Of a stretch of 64,000 nucleotides of DNA, positions 27,611-64,000 are shown piece after piece. Made by a program: the position numbers and the translations under genes. Under the pieces are notes generated by a model. It saw only the letters and a list, made by a program, of their open reading frames with translations. It did no database searches and was not told where the DNA came from. Numbering within the stretch: the stretch's first letter is position 1; the number at the start of each line of letters is the position of its first letter. This stretch comes from Giardia intestinalis (lineage: Eukaryota), in assembly GCA_000002435.2 (NCBI GenBank), contig CM018793.1; one strand, written 5' to 3'.

Positions 27611-27616
27611 ATGTGT

Positions 27617-27631
27617 ACTTAGGTAGTAAAC
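27617..27631 (+). promoter_or_regulatory. vsp extended polyadenylation signal ACTTAGGTAGTAAAC (contains AGTAAAC)
   Basis: Lies 6 nt after the VSP1 stop. The same 15-mer follows VSP2 and its inverted copy. Giardia poly(A) signal consensus is AGTRAAY. Confidence 0.8.
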
Positions 27632-47600: not shown

Positions 47601-49803
47601 TCAGGGCTTGCAATCCAAACGTATGTCATATCCAAACACGTTCACTTGGAGAGAAGAAAAGCACCATGATTTTCAGGTTCTGTCTCCACGACGGCACACA
47701 TCAAACAAGAAGACAGGGTCATCGTTCAGCTTAGCGCTAAAGAAGGAAGAGCTGCGGCAACGGAATGAATTAGCTAAGCACATTCACATCCTAGAGGCAG
47801 AACTAGCGCTTGAGCGACAGCGCGTTGAAATGGCGCAGACAAATCCCATGATGATATCGTGCAACTACAATCCAAGCTCTTACCCCTCTGCATTTTTTCA
47901 GGTGAGCGACGGGTTCAAGACTATAATGATCAAAAATCTCAAGAGCAAGCCAGCTGCCCGTCTCCTTTTGCGTGTAGGATCAGATTCTTTAGAGCGGAAC
48001 GATGCTTCTTCCGTGAGGGCGCCTGTAGCAACCCGCTCGCATAGATCTGTTCACCTTCCTTCTGCTCCAGTGGCTATTCCATTATTTGAGCCAACTGAAG
48101 TCCATCAAGGGCTGGCGATAAGCGTTAAGAAAGAGCAGAACCCGGATATCAATGAGCATGTTACCTTCAATGACTCTCTCACCTATGCCACTGCACTAGA
48201 CTGTTTACTGAATGAGATTTTTCCGCTCCCGCCTTCTATCTATAACAACACGCTGACATCATCAGCATTCCTTCAGTCCTATGTTGCAAAGTTTCCAGAA
48301 CTAGCTGAACTACGCAGAGCTCGGACAGCTGCAGCAGATATTCTTCTTTTAGTTCCAGCATCCTGTCCTGCAGCAGAATTGGGAAAATACATTTGTGACT
48401 ACCGTGCGACTAATCCACAAACACATACCTATCCATTGGCTATCGGGGACAAGGTGACCATGGTCTTTTATAAACAAGAGCTTACCAAAGGGGATGGGCG
48501 CGTCATAGAGTCCACACCTGATCCTGCTATCCAGTTCCTGGTCACTAACTCACCAGATCTACAACTGTTACGATATAACACTACAGCAATATATGCATTA
48601 CTTCCATGCCATGTTAAGATTAAATCCATCTCTTGGTTGACACGATTGATCCGACTTCTGATTGAAGAGATTACAAGTCAGGGCCCAGTATCTGCTTTGC
48701 TAGATAGGAACATGGCTATTAAGCGCGTCCATTTATGGGCAAAGAAAAAGTATGGTCTTCAACAATTGGTTACGAATCTTCTCTGGCATCTGTATTGCTC
48801 TCTACTTTTTCATCGACGCACTGATGTAGAGGTGGATTTCTTTGCACGTATTCTGTGCGGAGACTATGATGCCGACCAGCTAAACTTTTATTTGAGCCTC
48901 CGCGATCTGCTTATGCTATCTGCAGGTGCTCAAGATAAGGATAAAGATAAAAGTAGAGACAACTGTGATAGCGGAGATTCTTCTGCAGCTTCCGATAAAA
49001 GTCAACACATAATCGCCTTGAGCGCAGCATTCTCAGTGACAGACAAGCTTTTCCCGATGCTAAACTCCGCTGACGCCTATGAGGTGTTTGGGGCCATCCT
49101 GGACAATTCTACCTTAATGACAGACTCCAGGGATGTTTTCAGAACCGATCTCCGTGCGCATATTAGCACTGTAAAAGACAATCCTGACAAGTGCTCCTCC
49201 ATACGGTCTCTTTCCGTGCCTGTAGGAACTCTGGAAACGTATGTGCTCGTACACATATTACTTAGCATATACACATCTAGAAGAACGGTATTTAACATGC
49301 ATCTCATAGATTTGTTTGAAGCAAGTGCTAGCAGTGCCGGTCCCAAAGCAGGACTGAGCTTAGAAATTGGTCTCGAGATTCTGCGGAAAGCGTGGCCGTA
49401 CCTGCACCGCGAGACCATACTCTCGTTAGTTCATAGAAAGAACCCCAACTCCGCGGTAACTCAGGTGCTGCATTTCGAGGAGTTCGTGGAGCTGTTGGCA
49501 GGTCTTGTTATTGCACCCCCTACTACGATAGACCCTCTCCTTCTACAAGCAAAGGCCGGATTTGCTGCTGCGGAGCAGCAAGCGGTGAAGTTGATACCTC
49601 TTTTGGACAAGGATGTGCCGGACGATGCAGCGCTTTTGCAGGCGCTGGATTCTTTGCGGCAAGATGCCATTGCTGCGCTGCAAAGGCAGTGTTCGCTCAA
49701 GGCAAATGTTGTGGTCGCTGAGTACCTTCGGGTGGCAGAGTTTGAAGGAATGAGGAGAGGCCTTGTGGAAGAAACTCCCGATACTCCAAACGAAATAGAA
49801 TGA
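41614..49803 (+). CDS. giant hypothetical protein (2729 aa), N-terminal coiled-coil region then Ser/Thr-rich low complexity
   Basis: 8.2-kb uninterrupted ORF from an ATG 20 bp after the previous stop (ataaaataagcaaaaacgtcaaagatagc-ATG). Coiled-coil segment ~residues 190-400. Confidence 0.7.
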   Translation: MFPGLPNPSKPVTDNDIMDAYLQLRKQTGSRSSSPAKSLSKPAALPKTLKPIQVSHQMKIDTETASLAVEHRFTDHMYDLFGELENDPIFGEDGLLRSNGSLLHVSSSLKVPFGKEVGITDLSPSRFSTVSSPSPHSTSSGSLKTKDPLDIYLESAYSALDTVNTFDPSAADVLYRVIKWLVTDARVKPEEVARHKEASAHALALVADREKVIESLTKEKNSAVAEFEDLRRQIKDSESAAARLQFDLDSSRAEIRMHLEKISLLQADLLEEEKKFYDMKMERNKLAYRNTELVTTGVELRTQIEEFIKVQKECTSHDEEYTMEIKRLKSELDNLKEQYDDDIVAYQQIVGSKTELIADLTMQCNTAQNEVMILKDKLAYMQNCIMANKTVSSQRVKDGSLEGSLVGIVDQSTKNTKGSGDQSDTASQARAAVKKSKPTRGIAVQIGGDKDGLCTVAGEDLEDSEASSFIQFRLGDAGAGSQLLDLPSLAAFLSAQVSAEASKVNALLDICSTGSPSKQSNVASNVIRRKMQLFNNQVSKYKELLIKLANSEDVAVDLDVDSDIDFQASPHTHSAKNPNENPSKKTLHGVSSSSDAQLKTDDIRTLQTIQAVLGETFTLDDLITNEELLRIVGEAKLNLLLGKLKQRGCSTFNASNLLSEASTKDADDSKLSVAQHSLPLREPGKEQLFAATSPHVKAPKKGGQKNALGTESLTRKKAPSFPQKVLNHTGVRTAQKTMPNRAAVRDGKLPQDEASQLVMDGRLEGQMLQKITDISQIDVNLNPENDSLIEENGPSNLLPSDMTEETPIYGYVSPALTSDIFGADPKGSREYPTKVITDKNTVENKPESVVHNRLSTETSVSQKKPVTAIAMTGTRTATQESAEETHQAMKEILEPPARLQTPQDQQRQRMPPDTKQQAMYTVTTKQDSQLLTGMVVKATGPLVSETPVRIKGTPSVQVGKATPHIYKSSVRQPNDQMVFLPGNPVKSIGKLNDHQDSDDESESSSSSSLSLSSHFEDGKLLEKDVAGGVTNEPAASPTQIGLTEDRKHKKKKHNAKAHIKSDKEQGILIQLQGKDAKKGYYTYLQTKNDKALQYEPLLEGSRAFSDVILTASHIYDPHFENALLAKSKQALERIKTRALSDRTKLQMADLDYNYKMPANSILQGSQLLKRQQSEPDLSRGSEKLGGPIVTALFDGTIPHVDGVTSVAKKLIENKAIDHTPRGDASVSDLDLSGLRTYDTGSFASSKSVLDNDDPLIDMAQRAVRHFRLVGKSMQADDTPPFTTEAATSTPMREELPTNPKPLLSLHQSPPIELQEHKTAAGEVCQSSHDMSASKPEPTLASAKRENLVSQASSLLKKTAPILVRTFEPDPLLSDRATDEEGSTNKCCYDIESIFSLGMPSDEKSFELLRTAVSALAAKNMALHDEIEMLKQKLASAKSTSIAHPTPSISMACQSDPNPAAMASPAKTDTEAFTVAADSSHPKRQELRSFYPPKALNVPAQCSSNDLVDQQPNASFVSPPTNSFVEIKSQEGLIDTRSPCQFETDQRTINLEFSNEERVGSAVVKRKLGYEVLTHVAQVAHEPLLKPNKDIVHQSELYAYPLVDPAAENTADGGFGASLTYDTALNLAKSSISKSIIVKNKAIDHPTQSAELDNLMQIDPNSEHVLALSDGSEDEFHQLASTNTADTFRPSATEQHINRILFRNHAKPLLDEYTSIKHANGLTTNANSRDENIPSARSAALPVLVTDLKAAGLKGRPHRSASASTSVQGTALQLFPAEDIDTQNQYLVRTGSCKAILITTQNEEPLGSKELENSNGNIASSTDNQKPPSTSDRFLQGLQPPTNGRIQLDGDEDKTTVVGASQYNPYMQKRVVPYGDLQTSRIHVQDNCEVVPADLLYKEPTDEEVIRQHIHQSAQADLDASAERLGSLVRNRCNAITERPINLKSQRSSPKQSPSRSISPTVTAMGKGEVSAEPHLYTSAPLSPMRMLPQQNDGAVHQGLQSKRMSYPNTFTWREEKHHDFQVLSPRRHTSNKKTGSSFSLALKKEELRQRNELAKHIHILEAELALERQRVEMAQTNPMMISCNYNPSSYPSAFFQVSDGFKTIMIKNLKSKPAARLLLRVGSDSLERNDASSVRAPVATRSHRSVHLPSAPVAIPLFEPTEVHQGLAISVKKEQNPDINEHVTFNDSLTYATALDCLLNEIFPLPPSIYNNTLTSSAFLQSYVAKFPELAELRRARTAAADILLLVPASCPAAELGKYICDYRATNPQTHTYPLAIGDKVTMVFYKQELTKGDGRVIESTPDPAIQFLVTNSPDLQLLRYNTTAIYALLPCHVKIKSISWLTRLIRLLIEEITSQGPVSALLDRNMAIKRVHLWAKKKYGLQQLVTNLLWHLYCSLLFHRRTDVEVDFFARILCGDYDADQLNFYLSLRDLLMLSAGAQDKDKDKSRDNCDSGDSSAASDKSQHIIALSAAFSVTDKLFPMLNSADAYEVFGAILDNSTLMTDSRDVFRTDLRAHISTVKDNPDKCSSIRSLSVPVGTLETYVLVHILLSIYTSRRTVFNMHLIDLFEASASSAGPKAGLSLEIGLEILRKAWPYLHRETILSLVHRKNPNSAVTQVLHFEEFVELLAGLVIAPPTTIDPLLLQAKAGFAAAEQQAVKLIPLLDKDVPDDAALLQALDSLRQDAIAALQRQCSLKANVVVAEYLRVAEFEGMRRGLVEETPDTPNEIE

Positions 49804-49867
49804 ACTCCTTCCCCATAAAGCCAACTATACTTATGTAAAAGTGTGTGTTGTCGCTTTGAATAAAAGT

Positions 49868-50374
49868 ATGGAGCGTGAAGAGGTTCCTGTTTTTGACCCT
49901 GAAACGCTCGAGATAATAGGGAAGAGGTATCGCGATGAACTTACGAAAGAGGACATCCATGGAATTGTCTGCGTTGTCGTCGAGAATTCCGTTGGACAGA
50001 TATTTATGCAAGTTCGCTCTCACACGAAGAAGCTCTATCCTGGAGCCTTTGATCTGTCTGCAAGCGGGTTTGTGCGTGCAGGCGAGCGCTTTGAGGAGTC
50101 TGCATCTCGTGAGCTTGCAGAGGAAATTGGACTGATCGTCGACCCCTCAGCGTTGTCTGAGAGATTGATTTTCCGGGGGATGCTAGCGCCTTCAGAGTAC
50201 CCCTGCTATACACATGTTTACAAGGTACAGACGGATGAGCCGCCTTTGACGTCGACTGATGAGGTCGAGGATGGAAAGTGGTTTGCTCTAGACGAACTGC
50301 GGACAGCAATGCAGACCCAGCCAAAGCGTTTCACACGACTTGCACCTTTGGTTCTGAACCGAGTTTATCCATGA
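49868..50374 (+). CDS. Nudix hydrolase
   Basis: Nudix box GFVRAGERFEESASRELAEEIGL (Gx5Ex7REUxEExGU). The track start is a GTG. The ATG at 49868 follows gctttgaataaaagt. Confidence 0.8.
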   Translation: MEREEVPVFDPETLEIIGKRYRDELTKEDIHGIVCVVVENSVGQIFMQVRSHTKKLYPGAFDLSASGFVRAGERFEESASRELAEEIGLIVDPSALSERLIFRGMLAPSEYPCYTHVYKVQTDEPPLTSTDEVEDGKWFALDELRTAMQTQPKRFTRLAPLVLNRVYP

Positions 50375-50381
50375 TTAGAGC

Positions 50382-51524
50382 TTAACAGCCATTAAGGACG
50401 CTCATGATTATTCCCCTCTCTGCTTCGTCAGGACACATTTCGTATGGCTGTGTCTGCTTCTTGACGTCTTGTGCTGGAGATACGCAGTAGAGCGTGCTAT
50501 AATACTGTGCATAGTCATGAACTGTCAGACCTCCTTCAACGCCATTCCGTTTTGCATATCCCAGAAGTGAGTTAGATAAGCACCTGATCTTGTTGAACCA
50601 CAGTGGCTTGTTCTTCTTAATCCAGTAGTGCAGTGTTTCGACCTCATTAAGCTCATTGATGAATCCTGTTTCGACTGCGAACTCCATCGCTCTCGTGCTA
50701 TCTTCATCTGGAAATGCTCTGCGCAAACTGTCCACTGCTTGCTTTCCAATCTTAATGGATGTCTCGGTGTTATTACTGTAGGCCATTACAATAGACTTCG
50801 GGGCTATCCTGAGGATTAGATCGCTGAATGTAGAGTTTTCTACAGGCACATAGTCTTGTAGTGCACCTATCTCGTCTATTACACTTTCCAATTTGAACTG
50901 GGCGGTGATACTGGATAGTTTTTCACGGACCCACTGTGGCTTTAAGGATACACCTATATCAATGTATTGTGATGCTATACTTAGCATTCGCAATAGATCT
51001 GCGTACCTATTTTGTTTAGATGGTTCTTGATCTATATGGAGAACATTCAATGGGACGCCTTCATCTCGTAAGCGTCGTGCAATGCGAGCGACTGCTTCTA
51101 TATGGCGATAGTCCGTCATGTTGTTGGGATCATCGTTGAGATATATCATCAAATCAGTTGTTATTCCTTTGCTCGCTAAGTACTGGATGTCATAAACATA
51201 ATCTTCCTCGTACGGGAGGACTCCCTTGCTATAGTAATCTTCATACTCCCACTCCACAGACCCTGCGAAGAGAATTACGTTATTAAAGCCATGGAGTGAG
51301 CAAAAGTCTGCTAACTTTTCTATTTCTCCCTGTCTGTTTTTGATCAGGAGGATCCAGGCAGGCGTGCCGTCAATACGGTTGGTTGTGGAGTGAGACCACA
51401 CATAGAGGGACTTCTTTTGTTCTTTATATGCAGTAAATTCCGGATATAGCGCGTCTACATCACTTGAAGAAGTGAATGCGTATGTTGTTACTGCAAGCTC
51501 AAGGATCAGTCCCAGTGTGAGCAT
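50382..51524 (-). CDS. hypothetical secreted protein (N-terminal signal-like segment; possible glycoside-hydrolase-like fold)
   Basis: MLTLGLILELAVTTYAFTSS hydrophobic N-terminus. 380-aa ORF with a genuine ATG. Its stop is 7 bp from the Nudix stop. Confidence 0.55.
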   Translation of the reverse strand: MLTLGLILELAVTTYAFTSSSDVDALYPEFTAYKEQKKSLYVWSHSTTNRIDGTPAWILLIKNRQGEIEKLADFCSLHGFNNVILFAGSVEWEYEDYYSKGVLPYEEDYVYDIQYLASKGITTDLMIYLNDDPNNMTDYRHIEAVARIARRLRDEGVPLNVLHIDQEPSKQNRYADLLRMLSIASQYIDIGVSLKPQWVREKLSSITAQFKLESVIDEIGALQDYVPVENSTFSDLILRIAPKSIVMAYSNNTETSIKIGKQAVDSLRRAFPDEDSTRAMEFAVETGFINELNEVETLHYWIKKNKPLWFNKIRCLSNSLLGYAKRNGVEGGLTVHDYAQYYSTLYCVSPAQDVKKQTQPYEMCPDEAERGIIMSVLNGC

Positions 51525-52458: not shown

Positions 52459-54588
52459 TTAACAGCAGCACTCCAACCTTTGTAGTACTTCGTTCGAGAG
52501 GAGGGAGACTATCTCGTGGCATCCCCATAGCTTGGCCATACAAAGAGCATCTCCTCCCGTACTGTCTCTCAGACTCTTCTCTCTCACGAGGAGCTTTACA
52601 CAGTCAATACTACCAATTTTCATAGCAAACATAAGAGCGGTCCATCCCGTTTTCTCCTTCATGCCAGCTTCCTTGTCTACGAGTAGCCTAACACAATCTA
52701 CGTGACGATTCTGCGCAGCCCACATGAGAGCGGTCATCCCGTCAGTCCTCTGCATACCACCCTCCAGCTCCACAAGTAATTTGACGCAGTCTGTGCGGCC
52801 GAGCTCTGCAGCGCACATGAGAGCGGTCCATCCATTGCCATCTTGCATGCGGCTTTCCTTTTTCATGAGTAGCTTAACACAGTCTGTATAACCACGACCT
52901 GCTGCAGCCATGAGAGCTGTAGTTCCGTTATTATCTTGCATACATATCTCCTTCCTTAGTAAACTCCTGGCGCAGTTCGAGTAGCCATTACCTACTGTGG
53001 CCATAAGAGCCGTTCCTCCATTGTTATCTCTCATACCTCCTTCCCTTTCCAGCAAAAGCTCGAGACAGTCTATGTGACCAGTTCTTGCAGCCCATATGAG
53101 GGCCGTCCACCCGCTATTATCTCTTATGCCCCCTTCCTTCTCCAGTAGCAGCCCCACAAGTTCTGTGTGACCGTGTATCGCTGCTCTCATCAGGGCGGTC
53201 CCTCCGCATATCTTCCATCTGTCCACATGTGTGCATCCCTTCATCTGCATGCCTCCCTGGAGCGGTATGAGGGTCTTCACTGCCTCCACGTCGTTTCTGT
53301 CAACGGCCCTCATGAGGTCGGTGGAGTCGTCCTCTTCGAGATGCTCCTCCTCTGTGTCCTCTATATTGTCTGTCTCGTCTGTCGTATCTATTGCATCTAC
53401 TGTGTCTGTCGTATCTGTCGTATCCGCTGTATCCGTTGCATTCCACGCGTCCCCCATGCCTATCTTCATCCATATCTCCTTTACCTTCTCAAGCGTCTTG
53501 GAGGTCTCACCAAACTGCTCCTTAGGGATATCTGCCCCTGCGGATTTAGCAGCAAGCTCCTTCTCAAGAGATAGGATCTTGTTGTTGGCATCATTCAGAG
53601 CAGCCTCCAAAGATGCGCATCTGTTCCTCAGTGCTTTATCTTTGGCTTCCTGTTCATCAGGAGGGCCGTTGAGCATCTGAAGCAGACGGACAAGCCCTCT
53701 GGCTGTCGGCCTCCTCTCTGGATCCAGCACGAATATCCGCTCCAGAACACTCTTTATGAAGCCGTCGGTGATGCCACTCAGATCGGGCCTCCACCCATCG
53801 ACGAAGACATCCTCTGGTTCTCTGCCCCCCAAGAAGTCCGGCTTCCTCAGGGTGGCGAGCTCGTATGCTATGGCCCCAATGCTCCAGATGTTGGACGCGG
53901 GAGTTATGATACCGCGGAGGAGCGTCTCGGGGGCCATGTATGCGGGGTCGCCGGTCTTCGTAGCCCAGCTCGACATGCCCATGCAGAGTTCGAAATTCGC
54001 AAGAACAATGTGCCTCCTATTTTCTGTGAATAAAATATTGTCAGGCTTGAAGATAACACCAGGAAACAGGCTGCCGTGGACACCATTGATGGGATCATGC
54101 AAGTAGATAAGGCAATTAGCAAGGTCTCTTACAAGGGAAAGTACCAACCTCTTAGGAATAGGCTTATGAGTTTCTCTGTAATTAGTGATCAACTGCTGAA
54201 GGTCTCCGCAGCGGCGGTCCATGATAATAAAAATCGTATTGCGACTCTTAATTATCTTGCCGCAGCTGAGAACATCCGGATAAGAGGTGTTTGGAAGAGC
54301 GACTAGCTTGAGTTTGGCAGCATCTACACTATACTGGTCTGGATCATCAGGCCGGATCTCCTTCGCGGCAAGGTGAGGGTATCCTTTAAGAGAGTAGATA
54401 GTACTGTAGGCATCCTTGCTGAGCACGTCACCCAGGCACCTGCGCAGCTTCTCGGGACTGAACATGGGGACGTCATCTGTATCCACCAGCCCCGCAAAAC
54501 CACTAGCTGACCCCTCAGTAGGACTCCTTAGAGTGCTATGTGCGGCGGATGAGGTAAGGGGGTAAGACCGGCAGTCAACAGCCATCAT
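52459..54588 (-). CDS. NEK-like protein kinase-domain protein with C-terminal ankyrin repeats, probably a pseudokinase
   Basis: Kinase fold with AAKEI (VAIK Lys) and MAPE, but the catalytic loop HRD is replaced by HGS...KPDN and DFG by NFE. Coiled-coil linker, then at least 8 ankyrin repeats (GGTALM.AA..GH..). The track start is a GTG. The first ATG (54588) has an AT-rich context. Confidence 0.85.
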   Translation of the reverse strand: MMAVDCRSYPLTSSAAHSTLRSPTEGSASGFAGLVDTDDVPMFSPEKLRRCLGDVLSKDAYSTIYSLKGYPHLAAKEIRPDDPDQYSVDAAKLKLVALPNTSYPDVLSCGKIIKSRNTIFIIMDRRCGDLQQLITNYRETHKPIPKRLVLSLVRDLANCLIYLHDPINGVHGSLFPGVIFKPDNILFTENRRHIVLANFELCMGMSSWATKTGDPAYMAPETLLRGIITPASNIWSIGAIAYELATLRKPDFLGGREPEDVFVDGWRPDLSGITDGFIKSVLERIFVLDPERRPTARGLVRLLQMLNGPPDEQEAKDKALRNRCASLEAALNDANNKILSLEKELAAKSAGADIPKEQFGETSKTLEKVKEIWMKIGMGDAWNATDTADTTDTTDTVDAIDTTDETDNIEDTEEEHLEEDDSTDLMRAVDRNDVEAVKTLIPLQGGMQMKGCTHVDRWKICGGTALMRAAIHGHTELVGLLLEKEGGIRDNSGWTALIWAARTGHIDCLELLLEREGGMRDNNGGTALMATVGNGYSNCARSLLRKEICMQDNNGTTALMAAAGRGYTDCVKLLMKKESRMQDGNGWTALMCAAELGRTDCVKLLVELEGGMQRTDGMTALMWAAQNRHVDCVRLLVDKEAGMKEKTGWTALMFAMKIGSIDCVKLLVREKSLRDSTGGDALCMAKLWGCHEIVSLLSNEVLQRLECCC

Positions 54589-55182
54589 TACTTTTAATTT
54601 TACAGTACAGTTTACTCTCCGTTTCACTGGGTAAATCTCCCATGCGAGCCAGCGCCGCCCTGGGCAGGTCTCTTGCTTACTCACTAACCGAAATCCAAAT
54701 CCAGACTTCGCAAGTCAAACGTCGTCCACTTCAGCGGGAGAAGAAGCCCAAATGGGGAAGTCGGTGGTCCAACGCCTAGCCCTCTGCGTCCCCAGTAGAC
54801 AACAAACCCGCGGCTGCTCCCACGAGTGAGCCGCTGAGGAAGGCCTGCGGGGACTCGAAGAAAAGAGTCTAGAGAGCATCCAATAGAATGAGCAGGAGGG
54901 CCAGGAGACAGGAACAAGAGAGCTCTAGCATCTTCCTCTAGCGAACCTCCCTGTCATGGAGAAGGGTGTATGGTGGCTGAGTGTGGGGGTTGTAAACCTA
55001 GAGCAATCGCCGGGTCGATGGCTTCAGCATGGCTTTCAGCAAGATGTAGCAGGGAATCCGAACCAGCTGAGCATTGGACCAGGTCCTGGATAGGAGCTAA
55101 GGGCTCCTGTGCACGGCTGGGCTGCTCTCTAGATGGGACAGGGCACGGTGAGCTGGACGGGTGTGATACTATAAGGTATCTA

Positions 55183-55202
55183 TAGTTGTATCGATACAAC
55201 TA
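55183..55202. repeat. 20-bp perfect palindrome tagttgtatcgatacaacta
   Basis: Seen directly in the sequence. Self-complementary around a central atcgat. Confidence 0.8.
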
Positions 55203-58200
55203 GTAGGCCCACACTGGACTCTGAGAAGTACACTGCTAGACAGGCTGGAGAAGCCTGAGGGGCGATAGCACCATCTTGTTATCGCTATGCAGTGCTCTGT
55301 GGGCATGCATTCAAGACATCATCCCCTGGTAGCCGGGGAGGGGACAGAGTCAGGCGGTAGTGAGCATGCCCATCAGAATGCCTCTAGGTACTGACCAGCC
55401 ACTCCCTAGAAGCGCAGATGTCTCGGCTAGGTTGCATCACATCCAGAGCAAAAGAGGAAGCTGTACTGTCCTATTTGTTTCTCAGAACAATGTGCGAATA
55501 GAAGGCGGCCCAGCGACTGATACTCTGCACCGTCCTCTTCATCCACAGCCTGAGCAGCCAGATGCCAGGCTCAATATGAAGACGGAGGCTGCGAAGAGTA
55601 AACTCACCACGGGGCCGATTGTCTGACACCAAAAAATCCGAAAGGACGACAGTAGCTGCTGTCTCCTTGAAGAGTGCATCACACACAGTATCGACCTTGG
55701 TCTCCTAGACGAACACTCTAGAACATTCTACACTAGCCCTGACTTCTGAGGCATTAAACCCTATAACTAGCACAGAGTGAGGCAACAGCATGCAGACGGT
55801 GCGTTATCTTCATAGATGTGTACTACAGCTTCCGACTGCATATGGATGTACCGAGATGGGCAGTTTGACCGGCTTACATTGGCGACTTGTCCGTCACCGT
55901 GTTTGCTGCGATGAGAAGCTGCGTCTGCCCGGCAGACTGAGCATAGATTACAGCAGCTTCTCTGCTGATGCATGTATGGCCATGCGCCGCCCTAGTAGGT
56001 GGCGTAAATACCATAATGCCTAACCTGTCTGTTGTTAGCGGAAAATAGCAGTTAGTCGTGTTAGAGATGCCTCTAAGTAAGCCTCTAGTCTTTGTGCCTA
56101 CTCCTCTACCAATTATAGTGACGACCGTATATTCAGAAAGACTACGGAACTCTCCACCGTCTCTCAAGGAGACTAACGGCTCATGCATGGGCTAGCGACG
56201 GAGGCCCATGAACTACCTACTACGAGCCTAGCTTACTGAGCAGTCTGGATCACAGTGCACTTGATAAGCATCTATGCACTCATTTGGATGCTCACTACTA
56301 ATACTGACAAGACTACAAGGAGGTTTGCTTTTGGTCACACTCCCCTCATAATGCTTAGCCCTTGGCACCACATTTCAACGAAGGAAGATGTTAGGTAGGT
56401 ACGCAAAAGGCTATTTGTGCACGGTGGTTCCTGGAGAGCAAGTTTGCACAAAGACTGTAAAGGCGACTAGCAGATCAGTGAGGTAAGCCTGACGTTATAG
56501 AGACAAGCTGTAGATCCGGATTGCAATGGGGACGCCTGTGGTGTCTCTCTGGCCTTCGAGTGTAGAAAAATCGCGAGGTCTGCAGACAGGTGAAGCTAGT
56601 TTTTGATTTATGCGCTTATAGCAGTGTAATATTTATTGGGACCTGTTTCGTCTGAGGCCGAAGACGTTTATCTTTTCTCCGTATACAAGCAAGGATCTAC
56701 TGTAGAGATATACTGTGCAGGCCAGTACCAATCGACGTGGTTGCTATTAGCAGGTGTCTCACTTGCACCTTCTCATAACGGGTAGCCATCAGCAGCGTCC
56801 TCGGCCCACGTGACATTCTAGATGCATCTCTGCCTTTGACCAAAGATTGACACACGCGTTGTGTAGTTTAGATTGCTCATCAGCCAGAGTGGCGTGGCTA
56901 CCCCTTATCCTCTACTTGTCTATCTCGTACAACCATTGCTGATGGCCTTTCCAGATTAGCATGCAAATGCTCTTATCGGTCCCACAAAGGCATACGTCAT
57001 ACAAATAATCACTACAGTCTAGGGTCCTGTCTACCAAAGAAAAGGCCAACCAGTTTACCACGTAGGCATTCATTGTGCATCTCATATAGTCTGGCAAGTC
57101 TTGTGCTCCCCAACATTCCCTCGCAAGCCCTCAGCTAAAGCCCGTATGCATATCGTTATTGACAAGCGCCTTAGCTTCATCTGGCCACTTAGGGCGTTAG
57201 ACCCTTTGCCTTGTACAATGAGTATACTCGGCGTGGGAGGTATACAATCAGCATCGGCCTTTTCTGCTCGTTGTCCGTATGATACTGTTGTTGCTTCTTG
57301 ATTCAACCAGCAACCTAGTTAATGGCTCAAGAGTAGGTGATAGCCCGCCAACGGGCAGTCAATAGTGGCCATAACGCATACCTTCACCAAGGCACAGCCT
57401 CCCTGAGCAGAGCACAAAAGTGGACCCTGCCATTCTGCGGCCCTACTATTCTCTTGAATAACAGGATCAGAGCAGCTCATGGTTAGTATTAGCTGTCTTC
57501 GGGTCTCCACCTGTCCTTATTGTCTGAGGTATGCTTGACTCCGTAGATTCGAAAGATGCTGTACTGTACTCGTACCTGCAAGCCTCAGCCAAGCAAGGCT
57601 ACCATCTTGAAGGCTTGGCAGTGATGAGCCACACAGTCGGCGGGATCTGCAGAGAGCATTCATCCCAATGAGCCTTTTACTTGTCGTATACAGGTTGTGG
57701 CTGTGACCTCATAGGCGCAGGACTTTCTGGAATAACCGGTCAACTACAGAGTCTGTCCACTCATGTAAAGCCACCTGATAGAGGGCGATATCAATCTCGT
57801 CACTCGTCTACAACATACACCAGTCGAATCTCACAGATGAACAAGGGCCACCCAGCCCGCAGCACTAGACATTAACAGATATCCTTCACGACAAAGGGGG
57901 TGAGCGACTAGTAGACCACAGCAGTCGCCTGCCCATTGAAGATCTTCCAGTCACTGACCTAGGTCAGCTTCCTACAAGATCTTGAGAGCTTTATTAGAGG
58001 TGCATGCTTATAGAATCCCCAACTCAAGGTGCATGCTGTCGGACCCTGCTATTTTTCACATCAGCTCGTAGACATCGGTTCTTTTGATCTCTAGTGGGGT
58101 CACGGGGGATCGCAAGATATGGTTCCCTCAGTAAGGCTTTATCTGACTCCTGTAGCTATATGACAGGAGGATACCGGTCTTCTATGGATTATTTAACGCA

Positions 58201-59357
58201 TGCTAAGGTGCACCAGTACAAGTCCTACAGTGTGGCATGATTCGTGAGTCAAAAGGTAGGATGCTTGGGCTGATTGGCGTGTCTCCTCGGGACCAAATAC
58301 AGCTAGGACCAAAGGTCATGAACGAATGCTATTCGATTCCCTTATCAGCAGATGGGGGTCAACTGCTCTAGTATCCACAAGAGGCTATAGAGGGTACTGG
58401 ACCAGGCATCCGGCCAATTGCTGGCAAATCAACACAACCTCCTTGGATCTCCATTCTTTCCTCACAGGCATCTACATGTAGGAAGCTCTGAGGACCTAGA
58501 GCCCTACACTAACAGGCTCAAGGTATTGCACTCCTAGGTGCTTCCATTAGTGGTGGTAGTGATAGCACCAGGATGATCCAGAAGGGGGATAGAAATCCTG
58601 CCCCGTTAGCTCAAGAAATGGCACAGTTTGAGCAGGGTTTCCTCCTTGTTTAAATTTGGGAGTACTAGCCTACGCCCTCTGACCATCTGACGCCTTATCA
58701 TGCGATGGGGAATCTTAATAGTATCCACTACAAAAAGCCAGAAATAGCACCATGCACACCCAACAAACCAGAGCGTCTCATAGGCTAATCTACACTGATT
58801 CGCACTTCCACGGACCCTAGCGACCACTGTAACCGTCTCTCGGGATCTTGCAAGGGACTGTCCTTGAGCGCGATTCCTCCATGACAACCAGAAGTCGCAG
58901 ACATAGTCCAAAGGGATGAGAATACTATAGAGGCGGAGAAGAGATCATCTGCGCACGGGGGTCCGCAGGGGCCCGACCCGCACAGGGAAGGCGTAAGAGG
59001 CCAATTCCCCAGGAATGCAGAGACATTAAGAGAGGAACCAGCAGTGGGCCCATAACACAGGGAGGTCACCCGGGCCGCCCCCTGATTGGCCACAGGGTAG
59101 AGGAGCAGCATGCGCGCGGGACAGCATTGCTACTTATTTTTGAATTTTCTGTTTCCCTGCATGTTGTGCAGGGGTCCGCGGTGGGTGCTAGACTATAGTT
59201 AGTAGATGCTTTCGGCATTAACAACTATCTCTTGTACAACAATATTATCAAAAAGGGATTTCTTTAAGCTGGCAGCATAGCAATAACCGAATGGAGCTTT
59301 TTAGCTTTGGGTATCTTTGCTAGTAGGATTCTTGATAGTGGATTAAGAAGAATCTCA

Positions 59358-60617
59358 ATGTTGCTGATAGCTTTCTATCTTGGGCTGAGCGCCCTTGCGG
59401 CACAATGTAAGCAAGTACAAAATTGTGCAGCAGGTAAGTGTGAGATGGTTGGCGGCACTGAAATTTGTACAGAATGCGCGACAAATGGAAACGTTCCTAT
59501 CAATGGGGAGTGTACACCAAAAGGTAATGCGGCTGATAAATGCAAGAAAGTTAACGGTAATGAGCTTGTTGACGATAAGACATGTGGAAAATGTGAGAAC
59601 ACATACTTCATGTACAAGGGTGGATGCTATCAACTTGGCAGTGATGTCGCACTCCTCATCTGCAACGATCAAGCTGCTTCACCTGGAGGGCGTAATGCTG
59701 TTGCTGGCGTTTGCACAGAATGTAATGCTACTGGGGGATTCTTCAAAAGCCCAGAGGCGGCCGACACGACAGATTCCTGCATATCGTGCAGTGATACAAC
59801 TGGAGTGCAGGTTAATGGCGGTAACACGTATAAAGGTATCGAGAATTGTGTAGTATGTGCAGCTCCAGAAAGAGGAACAGGTAACGAAAATAAGATTGCT
59901 GCATGTGAGTCATGTCTTGAAGGATTCTTCGTTGCATCTAACAAGGCAGTATGCACACGTTGTACTGATAATGATAATTGCGCTAAGTGTGATGCAGGCG
60001 AAAACAAGTGCACAAAATGTAAGGCAACAGCCAGCAAACCATATCTAAAAAAGGGCGAAACCGAGGACTCTAATACATGTGTTAATAGTAACGAATGTAC
60101 TACTGATAAAACTTACTTCACTGATGATACTGACGACCCTACTCATGGAAAGATGTGCAAGAAATGCTCAGAAGGGATAGCAGACTGTAAGAAATGCGCT
60201 CCATCATCACCTTCTGCTTTAGCTACAGTATCCGCAATTGTGTGCACAGAATGTACAACACAGACCAACAAACCCAATGTTGCCGGAACAGGGTGCTTCA
60301 CATGCTCCGTAGACGGATGTAGTAACTGTAGCGAGAATGACGTATGTGAAAAGTGTGGACCTAACAAGAAGGTGAGCCCCGGGAGGAAGTCATGCGTGGA
60401 TAGCTGTCCCGAGAACTCCATTGACGATAACTCTGTCTGTACATGCAGCAGTGGGTACAGCCCTGACAGCAGTGGGGCCTCCTGTGTGTCCACTGGCAGT
60501 AATAGGAGCGGGCTCTCCACGGGGGCCATAGCGGGGATCTCCGTCGCAGTCATCGTCGTCGTCGGGGGTCTCATAGGGTTCCTCTGCTGGTGGTTCGTGT
60601 GTAGGGGGAAGGCGTGA
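59358..60617 (+). CDS. variant-specific surface protein (VSP)
   Basis: Signal peptide MLLIAFYLGLSALAAQ, CxxC-rich ectodomain, TM, and the invariant CRGKA-stop. The track start at 59307 is a TTG. The ATG at 59358 follows gattaagaagaatctca. The poly(A) signal overlaps the stop. Confidence 0.95.
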   Translation: MLLIAFYLGLSALAAQCKQVQNCAAGKCEMVGGTEICTECATNGNVPINGECTPKGNAADKCKKVNGNELVDDKTCGKCENTYFMYKGGCYQLGSDVALLICNDQAASPGGRNAVAGVCTECNATGGFFKSPEAADTTDSCISCSDTTGVQVNGGNTYKGIENCVVCAAPERGTGNENKIAACESCLEGFFVASNKAVCTRCTDNDNCAKCDAGENKCTKCKATASKPYLKKGETEDSNTCVNSNECTTDKTYFTDDTDDPTHGKMCKKCSEGIADCKKCAPSSPSALATVSAIVCTECTTQTNKPNVAGTGCFTCSVDGCSNCSENDVCEKCGPNKKVSPGRKSCVDSCPENSIDDNSVCTCSSGYSPDSSGASCVSTGSNRSGLSTGAIAGISVAVIVVVGGLIGFLCWWFVCRGKA

Positions 60618-61162
60618 CTTAGGTAGTAAACACGTCACTGTATATGGCTTATTACGCTATTCTGCCGGGGCTATCTGAGGATCGCCCAGAGGTCGTGCGA
60701 GTGATCCTCGCTCAAGCTCTGACCAGTCTAAGGACGAGGGTTGGTCATGAATAACATGACGGAGAGCCCTCTCCAGTGACACATCCAGAATCTGGGCATT
60801 CCTCGCCGCTCCATGAGGATATGCTCTGTCTGGATGTCCATGCCGATCTATCTTGGATTCAGGCCTTCTCGCAGGCTCTCTACTCTACCCGTGGCGCCTC
60901 TCCATGGTCTTCCTTCGTGGTGGGTGAAGCTCCGGTCGCTGTTTTTTAGATGCTCCTGTCTGTCAGGGGCTGCCACCGGGCTCTCCGCTGGCTGGGCCCT
61001 CGGTGTCCGTCCGGCTGTGGCCCGGGCAGCGCTCTACGGTCGCGGTCACTTGGGTCTCAGTGGGTTCGGATGGTGGGGAGGCGAGGGGAGTTAGGGCGGT
61101 GAGGCCGGAGGGGCTGGAGGGGCTGGAGGGGCTGAGGTTGGTGGTGGTTGTATGCGCCTCTG
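59871..61162. repeat. left arm of a large inverted repeat (3' two-thirds of VSP2 plus ~545 bp of 3' flank)
   Basis: The reverse complement of 62711..64000 matches this segment essentially base for base. The outer limit of the left arm is unknown because the right arm runs off the window. Confidence 0.9.
60617..60631 (+). promoter_or_regulatory. vsp extended polyadenylation signal ACTTAGGTAGTAAAC
   Basis: Identical 15-mer to the one after VSP1. Overlaps the TGA stop. Confidence 0.8.
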
Positions 61163-62710
61163 GTCCCTCGATAGACTGGGGTGATCGCAGCTGTGGTGAC
61201 TGGGGGCTGTCCATCTGTGACTCACCCCTCTGTGTGCTCGTGGTCTGTGAGTGCCTCCACCCAGACAACCCTCAGGAGCCGTGCACACCAGGACAGAGAG
61301 GGTGACAGAGGAGAGTCAAGCAGCCCTGCCACGAGGGTGCACAGCAGCCAGCCTGGGCTGCAGGGCCCGCTCGAGCGATGGTAGTGACAGACGACTCCCT
61401 CTGACAGCAGCCCTGGTGACTGGCACTGGTCTGCTTTCGAGGCTGAGTGACAGTGTGCACAGATGGACATGAGTGCAGGAGGACCATCCACACACGGACA
61501 GACTGTGCCCCCATACGAGAGCGCCAGGCAACCACCCGAGCACCCGAGAGGCAGCAACAGACACGGGCACTAGAGATCCCCAGCCAGACAGCTGCCATGC
61601 TCATCCATAGGGGCATCAGAGGACCAGGGGAGTCACCCTCACAATCAGGGTATGATAGGAAGCCAGAGGACTCAAACACTACAGCATAGCAGATCCAAGG
61701 GAGGCACACTCCAGCAGGCGAGCAGTGGCAGAGCCCTGATAGCTGCCAGCCCCCCATGACACCCAGGCAGGCACCAGGCTCACCGAAGGCTCTGCTGGCC
61801 TCCACCGATGATCCGAGGGGGCAGCAACCAGAGGAGTGGGGAGGCCTTCGGACACCACAAGAGGCCCGGCTGTCCAGCAGGCGATGGAGCACAGGTGGCC
61901 TCTGAGCACCATACAGGCACAGAGCCGACCATCAGAGTGATGCCCGATCAGAGACGACCACGAGCACCCTCCACCGCACTCTGAGGGGCTGTCGATCATC
62001 CCACTGCCTCTCATAGCAGACCTCCTTGAGAGCAGTGCAGTGGGTCCCAGCTCATGCACGCCTCCCCTGGCATAGGACACCCCGGCTCTCCCCGAGGGGT
62101 CATCAGAGCCACGAGAGGTGTCAAGGTCCTGGTAGATCACACCGGGAACTCCCCGAGGGCACAGCAACTGAGATATGAGTGACCCTCAGTGTGCTCCTCT
62201 CTGATGGTAGAGCATCTTGAGACCAAGGGGGTCACCTCTGCCTACGGACGACACACAGCACTCCACAACAAGGACCCACTAGGAGCAGCACAGCTGACCA
62301 CGGGGACAGTGCAGTCACCAGTGCCCCACCGTGCCAGTTTTCTGGGCCATCATACTATAGGCATGAGAGAACCCCATCCCATCCACAGGGTCATCCATGC
62401 CCCTGCTGGCCCGAGGTGAACTCCCCGTCGAGGCGCTGGACAGGGCATGCCAGGGGCTCAGCAGACCCACAGAGAGAATCAGCGAGTAGCAGGAGGGGCT
62501 GCGATGGCCTGCCTCAGCCCTCACGTACCAGCCAGACAGAGAGACAGTACTGCCTGAGGCATGCAGGGGCCAAGGGAGGCGATCAGTCAGGGGACACGAC
62601 ACGATCGTCGGTGCCTGTGTCTCGGGAGTGCAACGAAGGCTGGAGATCAGACACAGCCACCTTAGCAAACAGAGTGGGGACAACCCACCACCCCAATAGC
62701 CCACCGAACC

Positions 62711-64000
62711 CAGAGGCACATACAACACCACCAACCTCAGCCCCTCCAGCCCCTCCAGCCCCTCCGGCCTCACCGCCCTAACTCCCCTCGCCTCCCCACC
62801 ATCCGAACCCACTGAGACCCAAGTGACCGCGACCGTAGAGCGCTGCCCGGGCCACAGCCGGACGGACACCGAGGGCCCAGCCAGCGGAGAGCCCGGTGGC
62901 AGCCCCTGACAGACAGGAGCATCTAAAAAACAGCGACCGGAGCTTCACCCACCACGAAGGAAGACCATGGAGAGGCGCCACGGGTAGAGTAGAGAGCCTG
63001 CGAGAAGGCCTGAATCCAAGATAGATCGGCATGGACATCCAGACAGAGCATATCCTCATGGAGCGGCGAGGAATGCCCAGATTCTGGATGTGTCACTGGA
63101 GAGGGCTCTCCGTCATGTTATTCATGACCAACCCTCGTCCTTAGACTGGTCAGAGCTTGAGCGAGGATCACTCGCACGACCTCTGGGCGATCCTCAGATA
63201 GCCCCGGCAGAATAGCGTAATAAGCCATATACAGTGACGTGTTTACTACCTAAGTCACGCCTTCCCCCTACACACGAACCACCAGCAGAGGAACCCTATG
63301 AGACCCCCGACGACGACGATGACTGCGACGGAGATCCCCGCTATGGCCCCCGTGGAGAGCCCGCTCCTATTACTGCCAGTGGACACACAGGAGGCCCCAC
63401 TGCTGTCAGGGCTGTACCCACTGCTGCATGTACAGACAGAGTTATCGTCAATGGAGTTCTCGGGACAGCTATCCACGCATGACTTCCTCCCGGGGCTCAC
63501 CTTCTTGTTAGGTCCACACTTTTCACATACGTCATTCTCGCTACAGTTACTACATCCGTCTACGGAGCATGTGAAGCACCCTGTTCCGGCAACATTGGGT
63601 TTGTTGGTCTGTGTTGTACATTCTGTGCACACAATTGCGGATACTGTAGCTAAAGCAGAAGGTGATGATGGAGCGCATTTCTTACAGTCTGCTATCCCTT
63701 CTGAGCATTTCTTGCACATCTTTCCATGAGTAGGGTCGTCAGTATCATCAGTGAAGTAAGTTTTATCAGTAGTACATTCGTTACTATTAACACATGTATT
63801 AGAGTCCTCGGTTTCGCCCTTTTTTAGATATGGTTTGCTGGCTGTTGCCTTACATTTTGTGCACTTGTTTTCGCCTGCATCACACTTAGCGCAATTATCA
63901 TTATCAGTACAACGTGTGCATACTGCCTTGTTAGATGCAACGAAGAATCCTTCAAGACATGACTCACATGCAGCAATCTTATTTTCGTTACCTGTTCCTC
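62711..64000. repeat. right arm of the inverted repeat (continues past the window end)
   Basis: Mirror copy of 59871..61162. Only an indel and a mismatch are visible near the inner junction (ttggtggtggttgtatgcgcc vs ttggtggtgttgtatgtgcc). Confidence 0.9.
63255..64000 (-). CDS. variant-specific surface protein, inverted duplicate of VSP2 (5' part lies outside the window)
   Basis: The minus-strand translation is identical to VSP2 residues ~172-419 and ends CRGKA-stop. Minus-strand ACTTAGGTAGTAAAC lies at 63241..63255. Confidence 0.9.
   Translation of the reverse strand, partial: GTGNENKIAACESCLEGFFVASNKAVCTRCTDNDNCAKCDAGENKCTKCKATASKPYLKKGETEDSNTCVNSNECTTDKTYFTDDTDDPTHGKMCKKCSEGIADCKKCAPSSPSALATVSAIVCTECTTQTNKPNVAGTGCFTCSVDGCSNCSENDVCEKCGPNKKVSPGRKSCVDSCPENSIDDNSVCTCSSGYSPDSSGASCVSTGSNRSGLSTGAIAGISVAVIVVVGGLIGFLCWWFVCRGKA

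Follow-up and report, generated by a model that had tools for sequence, protein, structure and literature searches.

In Trypanosoma brucei, the VSG genes for variant antigens are flanked by 70-bp repeats and upstream regions that serve as a substrate for recombination, whereas VSP switching in Giardia is reported to be epigenetic or post-transcriptional and not recombinational. Giardia non-LTR retrotransposons reportedly comprise GilM, GilT and GilD, the last a 'dead' family, as Arkhipova and Morrison are said to have described in 2001 (via PMC10999387). Genome-wide, the intergenic distance in Giardia has a median of 79 nt and a mean of 392 nt, while VSP flanks have a median of 1,280 nt and a mean of 2,131 nt, with an average G+C of 53.9% in the 2 kb upstream of VSPs (Rodriguez-Walker et al. 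2022, bioRxiv 10.1101/2022.03.07.483299). These flanks are described as long, gene-poor and containing retrotransposon relics (PMC2996952; Xu et al. 2020, PMC7000408; 10.1101/2022.03.07.483299), the VSP genes have a defined PyAatgTT initiator (PMC2996952), and inverted VSP pairs consisting of two identical ORFs placed tail to tail, 2-4 kb apart, are known (Adam 2010, PMC2996952). According to Jerlstrom-Hultqvist et al. (2010, PMC3091692), breaks in synteny show an enrichment of VSPs, NEK kinases, protein 21.1, HCMPs and reverse-transcriptase sequences.

The stretch of DNA analysed here (64 kb, hereafter the window) lies on chromosome 5 of Giardia intestinalis WB (4,018,654 bp), and within it the interval 54589-59357 (4,769 nt) fills precisely the space from the start codon of a NEK/ankyrin kinase gene on the minus strand to that of a VSP gene on the plus strand. 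We consider it probable that this interval is genuine non-coding DNA, namely an extended VSP-locus flank in which a conserved gene block ending in the NEK gene meets a VSP-containing variable domain. Like the published VSP flanks, it sits immediately 5' of a VSP with a PyAatgTT initiator, is gene-free and far longer than ordinary spacers, held hypothetical ORFs that were later dropped from the annotation, contains a retrotransposon relic and adjoins an identical tail-to-tail VSP pair. It differs from them in being more than twice as long as their mean and in the G+C of its 2 kb upstream of the VSP (49.5%), the published value being an average trait and not a strict criterion; no similarity was found to the window's other VSP flank, upstream of VSP1. 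With the synteny-break regions (PMC3091692) it shares the flanking NEK kinase and VSP, a left neighbour that differs between A1 and A2, sequence bearing a reverse transcriptase (RT) in or beside the homologous locus in DH and P15, and a divergence that rises steeply towards the interval; here, however, the position of the break is narrowed to about 100 nt, at the 3'-end fragment of a LINE, and the non-coding backbone is collinear across assemblages, which was not described in that study. The resemblance to the T. brucei VSG flanks, non-coding DNA beside a variant antigen gene that is a substrate for recombination, is an analogy only, as the interval is chromosome-internal and no tandem repeats were found in it.

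The interval and its coding potential

The left flanking gene (52459..54588, minus strand) encodes a 709-aa NEK kinase with ankyrin repeats whose translation is 100% identical to KAE8305599.1 / XP_001705969.1, position 54588 being the first base of its ATG. On the right, the annotated VSP (VSP2; 59358..60617, plus strand; 419 aa; KAE8305600.1/601.1) ends in CRGKA and starts within CAATGTT (59356..59362, plus strand), which reads as the PyAatgTT initiator (Inr) motif. The gap between them is the largest in the window, in which 17 gaps measure at most 438 nt (most of them 7-438 nt, with one gene pair overlapping by 4 nt) and the other large ones 922, 934, 1054, 1205 and 2637 nt, so that the spacing of 0-250 bp given for the remaining genes by the first-pass annotation is only roughly right. 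Its description of a 4.8-kb stretch with only short ORFs was accurate, boundaries included. The G+C of the interval is 0.50 overall and 0.46-0.55 in 500-nt windows, with each base close to 25%, and amounts to 40% in the last 200 nt before the VSP.

The longest ORF runs to 108 aa from its start codon and the longest open frame to 114 codons from stop to stop, compared with 139 ± 26 codons in shuffled sequences, and the stops in six frames number 454, compared with 444 ± 16. Scored by a codon-usage log-likelihood trained on 18 genes from the window, the interval averaged -10.4, the shuffles -10.2 and real genes +13.3. A six-frame Pfam scan of the interval returned no match at E <= 1, and none of the frames carried an RT, endonuclease, VSP, kinase or ankyrin signal; an Rfam scan at E <= 1 and a tRNA scan of the interval were likewise empty. 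When the 12 longest frames were searched by HMMER against 1.84 billion proteins, only 10 short ORFs (44-183 aa) matched, and all placeable ones among these lie on homologous Giardia non-coding DNA.

Two minus-strand ORFs were formerly listed as hypothetical proteins, one of 104 aa at 55874..56188 (GL50803_117618, XP_001705967.1 only) and one of 50 aa at 59066..59218 (GL50803_115734, XP_001705961.1 only). Neither persists in the 2020 annotation, which places no protein-coding gene in the interval and gives the NEK and VSP2 genes consecutive accessions. In the 104-aa ORF, the longest ATG ORF in a comparison across lineages that did not include the 108-aa ORF, substitutions by codon position number 28/31/33 relative to contig L024 and 2/10/7 relative to contig L012, without an excess at the third position, and it is not a gene. 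The interval encodes no protein. No frameshifted or decayed protein-coding gene was detected, with codon bias, protein homology and third-position excess all absent, and the frameshift-tolerant translation that, according to the first-pass annotation, might bring out an ordinary gene reveals none.

Homologous copies in other isolates

Contigs assembled from the short reads of about 14 runs match 53839-57845 at 99.9-100% identity, and diverged collinear copies are found in DH (A2; 92%), in another lineage (about 69%) and in P15 (assemblage E; 64%); the region is thus present and alignable in other isolates, where its absence had been considered conceivable. Its core is a single-copy, ORF-free backbone without coding signal (54969..57845), which is 99.9-100% identical in contigs L015-L021, 93.1% identical with 7 indel events in DH, 69-71% identical in L024/L025 and, from 56986 onwards, 64% identical in P15. 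For the VSP-proximal part (57846..59357) the identities are 90.4% (DH), 68% (L029) and 64% (P15). To the left of the backbone, the block 54744..54937 is 93% identical to DH contig AHGT01000063, with the same match in L012, L013 and L028, and about 70% identical to the region upstream of the DH NEK gene (L001). Collinearity with the A2 copy begins at about 54633, and collinear homology with L014, L029 and P15 ends at about 59173. The synteny comparison proposed in the first pass yields a collinear non-coding backbone in both DH and P15, together with a different left neighbour in A2.

Divergence between WB and DH climbs steeply towards the interval: the neighbouring core block differs by only 1.76%, and identity within the NEK gene, 97-99% over its 3' half, drops to 77-91% over the 5' half. 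The flank itself is 92.2% identical, compared with 98.5% in the VSP coding sequence, and 13 indel events were counted in 4.3 kb at 8% divergence. Between WB and P15, the flank identity of 64% compares with about 63% expected at silent sites by our own arithmetic from the published identities of 87% (nucleotide) and 90% (protein; PMC3091692), and the interval looks to be diverging about as fast as unconstrained DNA. As a counterpoint, a collinear copy measuring 2.2 kb or more has been retained since before the assemblage A/E split, and the backbone adjoins a VSP in four diverged lineages (WB, DH, SRR9222555/8 and P15); in P15 the adjacent VSP is inverted, so its spacing to the VSP promoter is not kept. 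Given the 79-nt median intergenic distance of the genome, such long collinear persistence with few indels could mean selection on length or position.

LINE fragments, recombination and the inverted VSP pair

At the left edge of the interval, 54634..54743 (minus strand) is a 5'-truncated 3'-end remnant of a LINE-type (non-LTR) retrotransposon that points towards the NEK start. The match was first seen as a repeat (I4). In blastn the remnant matches 28522-28584 of the window at E = 3e-7, and it is recognised at E = 3.2e-14 by an nhmmer profile whose sole sources were the 3' ends of DH-type and P15 LINEs and positions 28450-28640 of the window. The AT-rich sequence just upstream of the NEK start (54589..54633, minus strand) can in DH still be identified as the LINE 3'-end tail, the profile match there extending up to the NEK ATG (L001:308-471). 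Dispersed fragments of this type sit 0-45 nt upstream of three unrelated genes. On the side away from the NEK gene, homology to LINE copies ends at about 54743-54760, and 54744-59357 yielded no match to the intact RT ORF of P15 (tblastn) or to the elements of DH and P15 (tblastx, blastn). From the first-pass suggestion of a decayed gene or retroelement remnant, to be followed up by a translated retrotransposon search, there remains a remnant of only ~110 nt, detected by nhmmer, and no detectable decayed gene. As in GilM, GilT and GilD, the P15 element whose 3' end matches the remnant encodes an RT, with a YADD box, and the C-terminal part of its ORF resembles, in our reading, a zinc knuckle together with a restriction-like endonuclease; the A2 LINE copy resembles GilD in being full of frameshifts. 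The difference is that just ~110 nt of the WB interval derives from such an element.

This A2 copy occupies a site that is empty in WB (54938..54968), where A2 genomes carry 3,094 nt. The insert (L012:302-3395, also found in L013 and the DH assembly) is a decayed 3.1-kb LINE at 54937/54969 that holds a frameshifted RT and the element's own 3' end; it scores E = 4e-6 and 27.1 bits against Pfam RVT_1, under the curated cut-off of 29.6, and is matched by the P15 RT ORF at E = 2e-45. Diverged copies of GTATGRTRGCWGAG at both junctions resemble a target-site duplication, and contig L014 begins exactly at 54969.

The left neighbour of the homologous locus differs in A2 genomes, and the A1 and A2 gene orders part at the LINE fragment of the left edge. 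This synteny break is consistent with, although not proof of, ectopic recombination at dispersed LINE fragments. Further to the right, in mosaic contig L014 of isolate SRR21529620, a 50-nt identity profile places a recombination junction at 57350..57600, with 99-100% identity to WB leftwards and 60-70% rightwards. All WB-like contigs (L015-L021, about 14 runs) end at 57845, and the VSP-proximal non-coding part beyond it is probably repeated in WB-like genomes, most simply as the outer part of an inverted duplication. The inverted arm 59872-61146 is 100% complementary to 62726-64000, being cut only by the window end, and the identical VSP ORFs, for whose one sequence the adjacent accessions KAE8305600.1 and KAE8305601.1 exist, lie tail to tail at a distance of 2,637 nt, which fits the inverted identical pairs described previously (Adam 2010). 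Judging from the contig ends, 57845/57846 is probably the outer edge of this duplication, whose second copy would lie beyond the window.

The first-pass annotation had noted that the region adjoins an inverted VSP structure, which the paired ORFs and complementary arms bear out, and had proposed a non-genic buffer belonging to the same rearranging domain. Unconstrained divergence, the left-edge synteny break, the polymorphic LINE insertion, the recombinant haplotype and the repeat boundary at 57845 all support that proposal.

Candidate elements and competing explanations

The only perfect palindrome of at least 16 nt in the window, TAGTTGTATCGATACAACTA (20 nt, 55183..55202), lies inside a cluster of GATAC/GTATC motifs, and in DH its central CG has become TA with the palindrome still perfect. 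The best of 124 windows scanned for structure is a long imperfect hairpin of 115 nt (55506..55620), with z = -4.06 on the plus and -3.62 on the minus strand (200 dinucleotide shuffles); in the DH-type copy, the only diverged copy compared, four pairs have changed to wobble, five are broken and none is compensated. A shuffle test over the four diverged lineages gave no conserved island clearly beyond chance, the two weak candidates being a G+C-rich, borderline one at 58951..58990 (28 of 40 columns invariant, shuffle 99th percentile 27) and one at 59136..59175 (plus strand) that is within chance (25 of 40). The latter, about 185 nt upstream of the VSP ATG, contains a small hairpin, CCCTGCA-TGTTG-TGCAGGG, which is single-copy in the window and occurs once per homologous locus. 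None of the 100 published Argonaute-bound miRNAs searched (of 105; PMC3937270) matched the window with up to three mismatches.

The data refute an artefact of the long-read WB assembly or contamination by foreign DNA. The near-equal base frequencies and a dinucleotide signature somewhat unlike the rest of the window (delta* 80, compared with 33 ± 8 for coding chunks) would speak for it, but the sequence recurs in the assemblies of DH and P15, in metagenomes and in numerous short-read assemblies made independently, and at the 2-kb scale its signature is within the window's range except for the missing TA depletion, as expected of non-coding DNA. Also very improbable is an ordinary protein-coding gene that sequencing errors, frameshifts or introns would conceal, despite the two hypothetical ORFs of the old annotation. 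Identical stops are recovered at 99.9-100% identity in independent Illumina assemblies, Giardia introns number only eight cis-spliced and five trans-spliced (PMC7000408), and the shuffle-like codon score, the lack of homology to proteins and the even distribution of substitutions over codon positions add to the case. The whole interval might instead consist of one or more ancient insertions decayed beyond recognition, either an old LINE whose 3' end is at 54634-54743 or a pseudogene of the VSP or NEK family. We hold this possible but doubtful; it concerns the origin of the DNA and is compatible with a non-coding VSP flank. In its favour, the LINE 3' end at the left edge is oriented as expected for an element body extending rightwards, the unique part, at 3.2 kb, is about as long as the DH relic (3.1 kb), the purine skew switches back and forth across the interval in the manner of former genes on both strands, and transposon relics are reported from VSP flanks (10.1101/2022.03.07.483299). 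Against it stand the failure of the P15 and DH element searches to the right of the fragment, the absence of any family signal in Pfam and the end of LINE homology at the fragment itself.

A functional role for all or part of the interval as a non-coding unit of the VSP locus is unlikely in our estimation, be it as an lncRNA, which the first-pass annotation also suggested, as a small-RNA source or as a chromatin or regulatory domain that would act in cis to help keep VSP2 silent or switchable and insulate it from the constitutively used NEK promoter. Such a unit would agree with the backbone being kept beside a VSP in four lineages, the few indels, the 115-nt hairpin and both candidate islands, as well as with the many Argonaute-bound small RNAs reported from unannotated regions (PMC3937270) and the suggested epigenetic control of VSP upstream regions (10.1101/2022.03.07.483299). 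Yet overall divergence equals the silent-site expectation, the hairpin lacks compensatory change, the islands are at or below the chance threshold, neither published miRNAs nor Rfam families map here, and promoter spacing is lost in P15. Quite unlikely, too, is a more elaborate arrangement in which the backbone would be a long-lived, position-conserved platform with cis-elements (the islands 59136-59175 and 58951-58990, the palindrome and the 115-nt hairpin) for VSP silencing or switching or for small RNAs, and in which LINE 3'-end fragments would contribute promoter-proximal sequence and, as points of recombination, let VSP domains change gene neighbourhoods. The hairpin, the palindrome that stays perfect through a double change and the borderline island are not explained by spacer DNA.

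Taken as an extended non-coding VSP flank, the interval would comprise ~110 nt of LINE-type retrotransposon 3'-end scrap abutting the NEK start, a single-copy backbone of ~2.9 kb and of unrecognisable origin, and, beside the VSP, ~1.5 kb that WB-like genomes probably have in repeated form through an inverted duplication reaching to 57846. We infer that it has no sequence-specific function and would act through no product, being tolerated spacer DNA where LINEs would insert and diverged haplotypes would recombine without hitting genes; isolates may differ in structure at the VSP neighbourhood because the spacer tolerates such events. The interval is one long example of the gene-poor, rearranging VSP flank already documented in Giardia.

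Boundaries and coding content of the NEK-VSP2 interval

The window belongs to chromosome 5 of Giardia intestinalis WB (assemblage A1). The interval at 54589-59357 is the exact space separating two divergent start codons, that of a 709-aa NEK kinase on the minus strand (52459-54588, 100% identical to 'Kinase, NEK' KAE8305599.1) and that of VSP2, a 419-aa VSP ending in CRGKA on the plus strand (59358-60617), of which two identical copies are annotated side by side (KAE8305600.1 and KAE8305601.1). Because the 2020 annotation gives the NEK and VSP2 proteins consecutive accessions, it places no protein-coding gene between the two. The first-pass annotation had placed genes elsewhere 0-250 bp apart, which holds only approximately: most other gaps in the window measure 7-438 nt, four gaps of about 0.9-1.2 kb occur, and 2,637 nt separate the two VSP copies, the interval being the largest gap of all. 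Its description of this 4.8-kb stretch as lacking any long ORF proved correct, with a longest start-codon ORF of 108 aa, a longest stop-to-stop frame of 114 codons (139 +/- 26 in shuffles) and 454 stops over six frames (444 +/- 16 in shuffles); ORF lengths and stop count are thus those expected of random sequence matched in composition.

A hidden gene, its ORF split by sequencing errors, is excluded by several lines of evidence. A codon-usage scan trained on 18 genes of the window gave a mean log-likelihood of -10.4 for the interval, matching the shuffles (-10.2), compared with +13.3 for real genes, and the six-frame translations with stops masked had no Pfam match at E <= 1. Exhaustive HMMER searches with the twelve longest frames against 1.84 billion representatives returned ten matches, all to short ORFs (44-183 aa) with no protein family among them; where the contig could be traced, the matched ORF was in each case situated in non-coding DNA homologous to the interval in another Giardia genome. 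The 2007 annotation had two small ORFs in the interval, GL50803_117618 (55874-56188) and GL50803_115734 (59066-59218), which were later dropped. The former, a 104-aa ORF open in three lineages, was considered as a small gene and rejected on substitutions spread evenly over codon positions (28/31/33 against L024, a contig of a diverged lineage, and 2/10/7 against L012, a metagenome contig of A2 type). The interval is real sequence, and an assembly artefact is excluded as well, since 53839-57845 is reproduced at 99.9-100% identity by short-read contigs (L015-L021) from about 14 sequencing runs; additionally, one ORF of the interval is present on 81 WB-like short-read contigs. Contigs reached via the 380-aa neighbor of NEK break within the NEK ankyrin repeats. 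A foreign origin, considered from the dinucleotide signature, was rejected because at the 2-kb scale only missing TA depletion stands out, which is expected for non-coding DNA. Within the interval, tandem and dispersed repeats amount only to short matches at chance level, and comparison with the VSP1 flank found no similarity.

LINE-type sequence at the NEK side and elsewhere in the window

The 55-63 nt shared by 54641-54702 and 28522-28584 belong to a LINE-type 3' end that also terminates the 3.1-kb insert of A2 genomes (L012:3202-3388) and the reverse transcriptase (RT)-encoding element (5190-7340) on L026, a contig of the assemblage E isolate P15 (L026:7167-7340), where a second, inverted copy lies at L026:5191-5358. 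A profile built from the A2-insert and P15 element ends together with window 28450-28640, leaving out the NEK-side copies, matched 54634-54743 on the minus strand (E = 3.2e-14) and the region upstream of NEK in the A2 isolate DH (E = 1e-12). The retroelement remnant suggested for this stretch is therefore present at 54634-54743 but small: beyond about 54760 no similarity to these elements was found by blastn, tblastx or tblastn. The P15 RT ORF contains a YADD box and matches the A2 insert at E = 2e-45, and its C-terminal region can be read as a zinc knuckle and a restriction-like endonuclease.

Elsewhere in the window, there is similarity to the endonuclease-like end of the P15 RT ORF at 28147-28335 and to the element 3' end at 28459-28634 (plus strand). 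The RT ORF match over 28161-28335 indicates that a larger relic of this family occupies the gene-free 1 kb that follows VSP1; this stretch (27611-28664), from the VSP1 end to a 184-aa gene, is a 5'-truncated relic, and a 172-aa TTG ORF in it (27859-28377) is probably spurious. VSP1 itself, the other VSP of the window (530 aa), has a 105-nt tandem repeat in five or more near-identical copies (26012-26746), and its start (TGCATGAC) is without the PyAatgTT initiator, unlike that of VSP2.

LINE 3' ends sit 0-45 nt upstream of the starts of three unrelated genes, each pointing at the gene: at 28459-28634 (plus strand) near the 184-aa Spc24-like gene starting at 28665, at 54634-54743 (minus strand; DH counterpart L001:308-471) near the NEK start at 54588, and at L028:2282-2426 (minus strand) near a 193-aa cysteine-rich gene of DH. 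Such ends may contribute sequence close to promoters; alternatively, the element may have a preference for AT-rich promoter sites.

Related loci and structural differences among isolates

The DH contig AHGT01000063 (L028) is collinear with 54633-54937 (93%) and 54969-63291 (87.7%), and two metagenome contigs (L012, L013) are 99.7-99.9% identical to it. Between the equivalents of 54937 and 54969, A2 genomes carry a 3,094-nt insert (L028:2620-5713) that is absent from WB-like contigs. It is a LINE copy whose RT is frameshifted and scores below the curated Pfam cut-off for RVT_1 (E = 4e-6). GTATGRTRGCWGAG recurs in diverged form at both junctions of the insert, a pattern that hints at a target-site duplication. 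Where WB has NEK, left of about 54633, the A2 locus carries the 193-aa cysteine-rich gene together with a cathepsin-like peptidase. The NEK orthologue instead lies on the DH contig AHGT01000043 (L001) together with the conserved genes left of NEK, a contig that ends 469 nt upstream of the NEK start, and the DH NEK gene has its own diverged copy (67-70%) of the LINE fragment and the next 300 nt. Given this different left neighbor in A2 and the separate LINE copy at DH NEK, the A1 and A2 arrangements part at the LINE fragment, for which recombination between dispersed LINE copies would be a plausible cause.

A contig from run SRR21529620 (L014) starts exactly at 54969, as would follow from a repeated element at the junction in that isolate too. 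Its identity to WB, 99-100% as far as about 57,350, then drops via 92-86% to 60-70%, and a VSP follows; L014 is a recombinant, WB-like on the left and deeply diverged on the right, with its junction at about 57.35-57.6 kb. Its VSP is 37% identical to VSP2, yet collinear at the N-terminus. Three contigs from runs SRR9222558 and SRR9222555 (L024, L025, L029) align to 55868-57615 at 69-71% and to 57525-59173 at 68%, and after this type of flank comes a VSP start with CAATGTT. The P15 contig L026 (ACVC01000769) aligns to 56986-59173 at 64%, its flank being followed by an inverted VSP and the 475-aa RT ORF. A VSP cassette may have been replaced at 59173, but in-situ divergence of deep alleles fits the L014 VSP equally well.

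On the right side, all WB-like contigs end at 57845, and the visible inverted repeat, 59872-61146 against 62726-64000, is 100% complementary and ended only by the window edge. Together with the two identical VSPs, the simplest reading of these observations would place each arm at 57846-61146; the arms of the inverted duplication probably measure about 3.3 kb and the right 1.5 kb of the interval would be duplicated beyond the window. An inversion of the VSP loop in L012 relative to WB was dismissed as assembly ambiguity, because an assembly from short reads cannot tell which way round a loop lies when its inverted arms are identical; DH is collinear with WB. The sequence between the VSP copies (61147-62725) has an unusually high G+C content of 61-64%, a strong A-over-T skew and low CpG and TpA, and its 206-aa ORF is absent from the protein collection. 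Pseudogenes between tail-to-tail VSP pairs have been reported in published work.

Divergence, unusual features and significance of the interval

WB and DH are 92.2% identical in the flank, with 13 indel events in 4.3 kb, compared with 98.5% identity in the first 1 kb of VSP coding sequence and a difference of only 1.76% in a conserved core block (42000-51524). The DH NEK contig matches WB at 98-100% as far as about 51.8 kb and at 93-98% from there to 53.6 kb; the match weakens to 77-91% over the NEK 5' half and, interrupted by indels, to about 70% over the initial 400 nt of the interval. The NEK protein is only 88% identical between WB and DH, its divergence (52459-54588 against L001) being concentrated in the 5' half, which encodes the kinase domain and is nearest to the VSP domain; the adjoining 380-aa gene shows three residue differences. 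Within VSP2, the 98.5% identity gives way abruptly to 77-81% over the final 250 nt and the 3' flank (60369-61146 against L028), which suggests that other family members have donated the conserved VSP 3' end by gene conversion. Between WB and P15, flank identity is 64%, near a silent-site estimate of about 63% that is our own arithmetic from published orthologue identities (87% nucleotide, 90% protein; PMC3091692). In four diverged lineages, the best 40-nt windows contain 28, 26 and 25 invariant columns (shuffle 99th percentile, 27), and no sub-region of the interval is clearly constrained. RIP-like or deamination hypermutation was also rejected: the transition:transversion ratio is 8.4 in the flank and 13.5 in the core block, which makes the bias a general A1-A2 feature and not a flank-specific one.

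A non-coding RNA or regulatory role of the interval was considered in light of several unusual features. At 55506-55620, about 115 nt form an imperfect hairpin with z scores of -4.06 on the plus and -3.62 on the minus strand, the best of 124 windows scanned; in the A2 copy, four pairs become wobbles, five are broken and none is compensated, and none of 100 published Argonaute-bound miRNAs maps anywhere in the window, this hairpin included. A perfect 20-nt palindrome, TAGTTGTATCGATACAACTA (55183-55202), amid four clustered GATAC/GTATC motifs, is the only perfect one of 16 nt or more in the 64-kb window, and in its DH copy the central CG is changed to TA and the palindrome is still perfect. Collinear homology with the diverged lineages stops at about 59173, right next to a small hairpin island (59136-59175) whose conserved motif had no matches in JGI metagenomes. 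Moreover, 2 kb of non-coding sequence has stayed collinear in different assemblages, although the genome is otherwise very compact. Rfam gave no match at E <= 1 in the interval and a tRNA scan of it found none. Hairpin, palindrome, island, persistent stretch and gene-adjacent LINE ends, five features in all, are statistically unusual, but none of them has support for a function; an RNA or regulatory role is unlikely, as nothing found supports it. The evidence supports the reading, already offered in the first-pass annotation, of a non-genic buffer of a rearranging VSP domain.

Such a region is of a documented kind. Identical inverted VSP pairs lie 2-4 kb apart (Adam et al., PMC2996952), 'regions around VSPs tend to be gene-poor' and more variable (Xu et al. 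2020, PMC7000408), and synteny breaks involve VSPs, NEK kinases and RT sequences (Jerlstrom-Hultqvist et al. 2010, PMC3091692). VSP flanks, with a median/mean of 1,280/2,131 nt compared with 79/392.5 nt genome-wide, carry transposon relics, and small hypothetical genes beside VSPs have been doubted (Rodriguez-Walker et al. 2022, 10.1101/2022.03.07.483299). As it fits four published descriptions, the interval is a long member of the documented VSP-flank class, high G+C content being the one average trait that it lacks (49.5% in the 2 kb upstream compared with a reported average of 53.9%).

Overall, long gene-free VSP flanks with retroelement relics and synteny breaks were already documented for Giardia, and the interval is one long example with some new base-level detail, its value being that of a worked case at base-pair resolution. 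The small ORFs removed from the old annotation are here confirmed as non-genes. A VSP flank can be an old, collinear and freely drifting backbone common to several assemblages, within which recombinant haplotypes occur; a LINE 3'-end fragment marks where A1 and A2 gene orders diverge, and assemblage A genomes differ at one site in whether they carry a decayed LINE. The locus thereby gives concrete sites for asking whether VSP flanks matter to antigenic variation or are merely tolerated spacer DNA.
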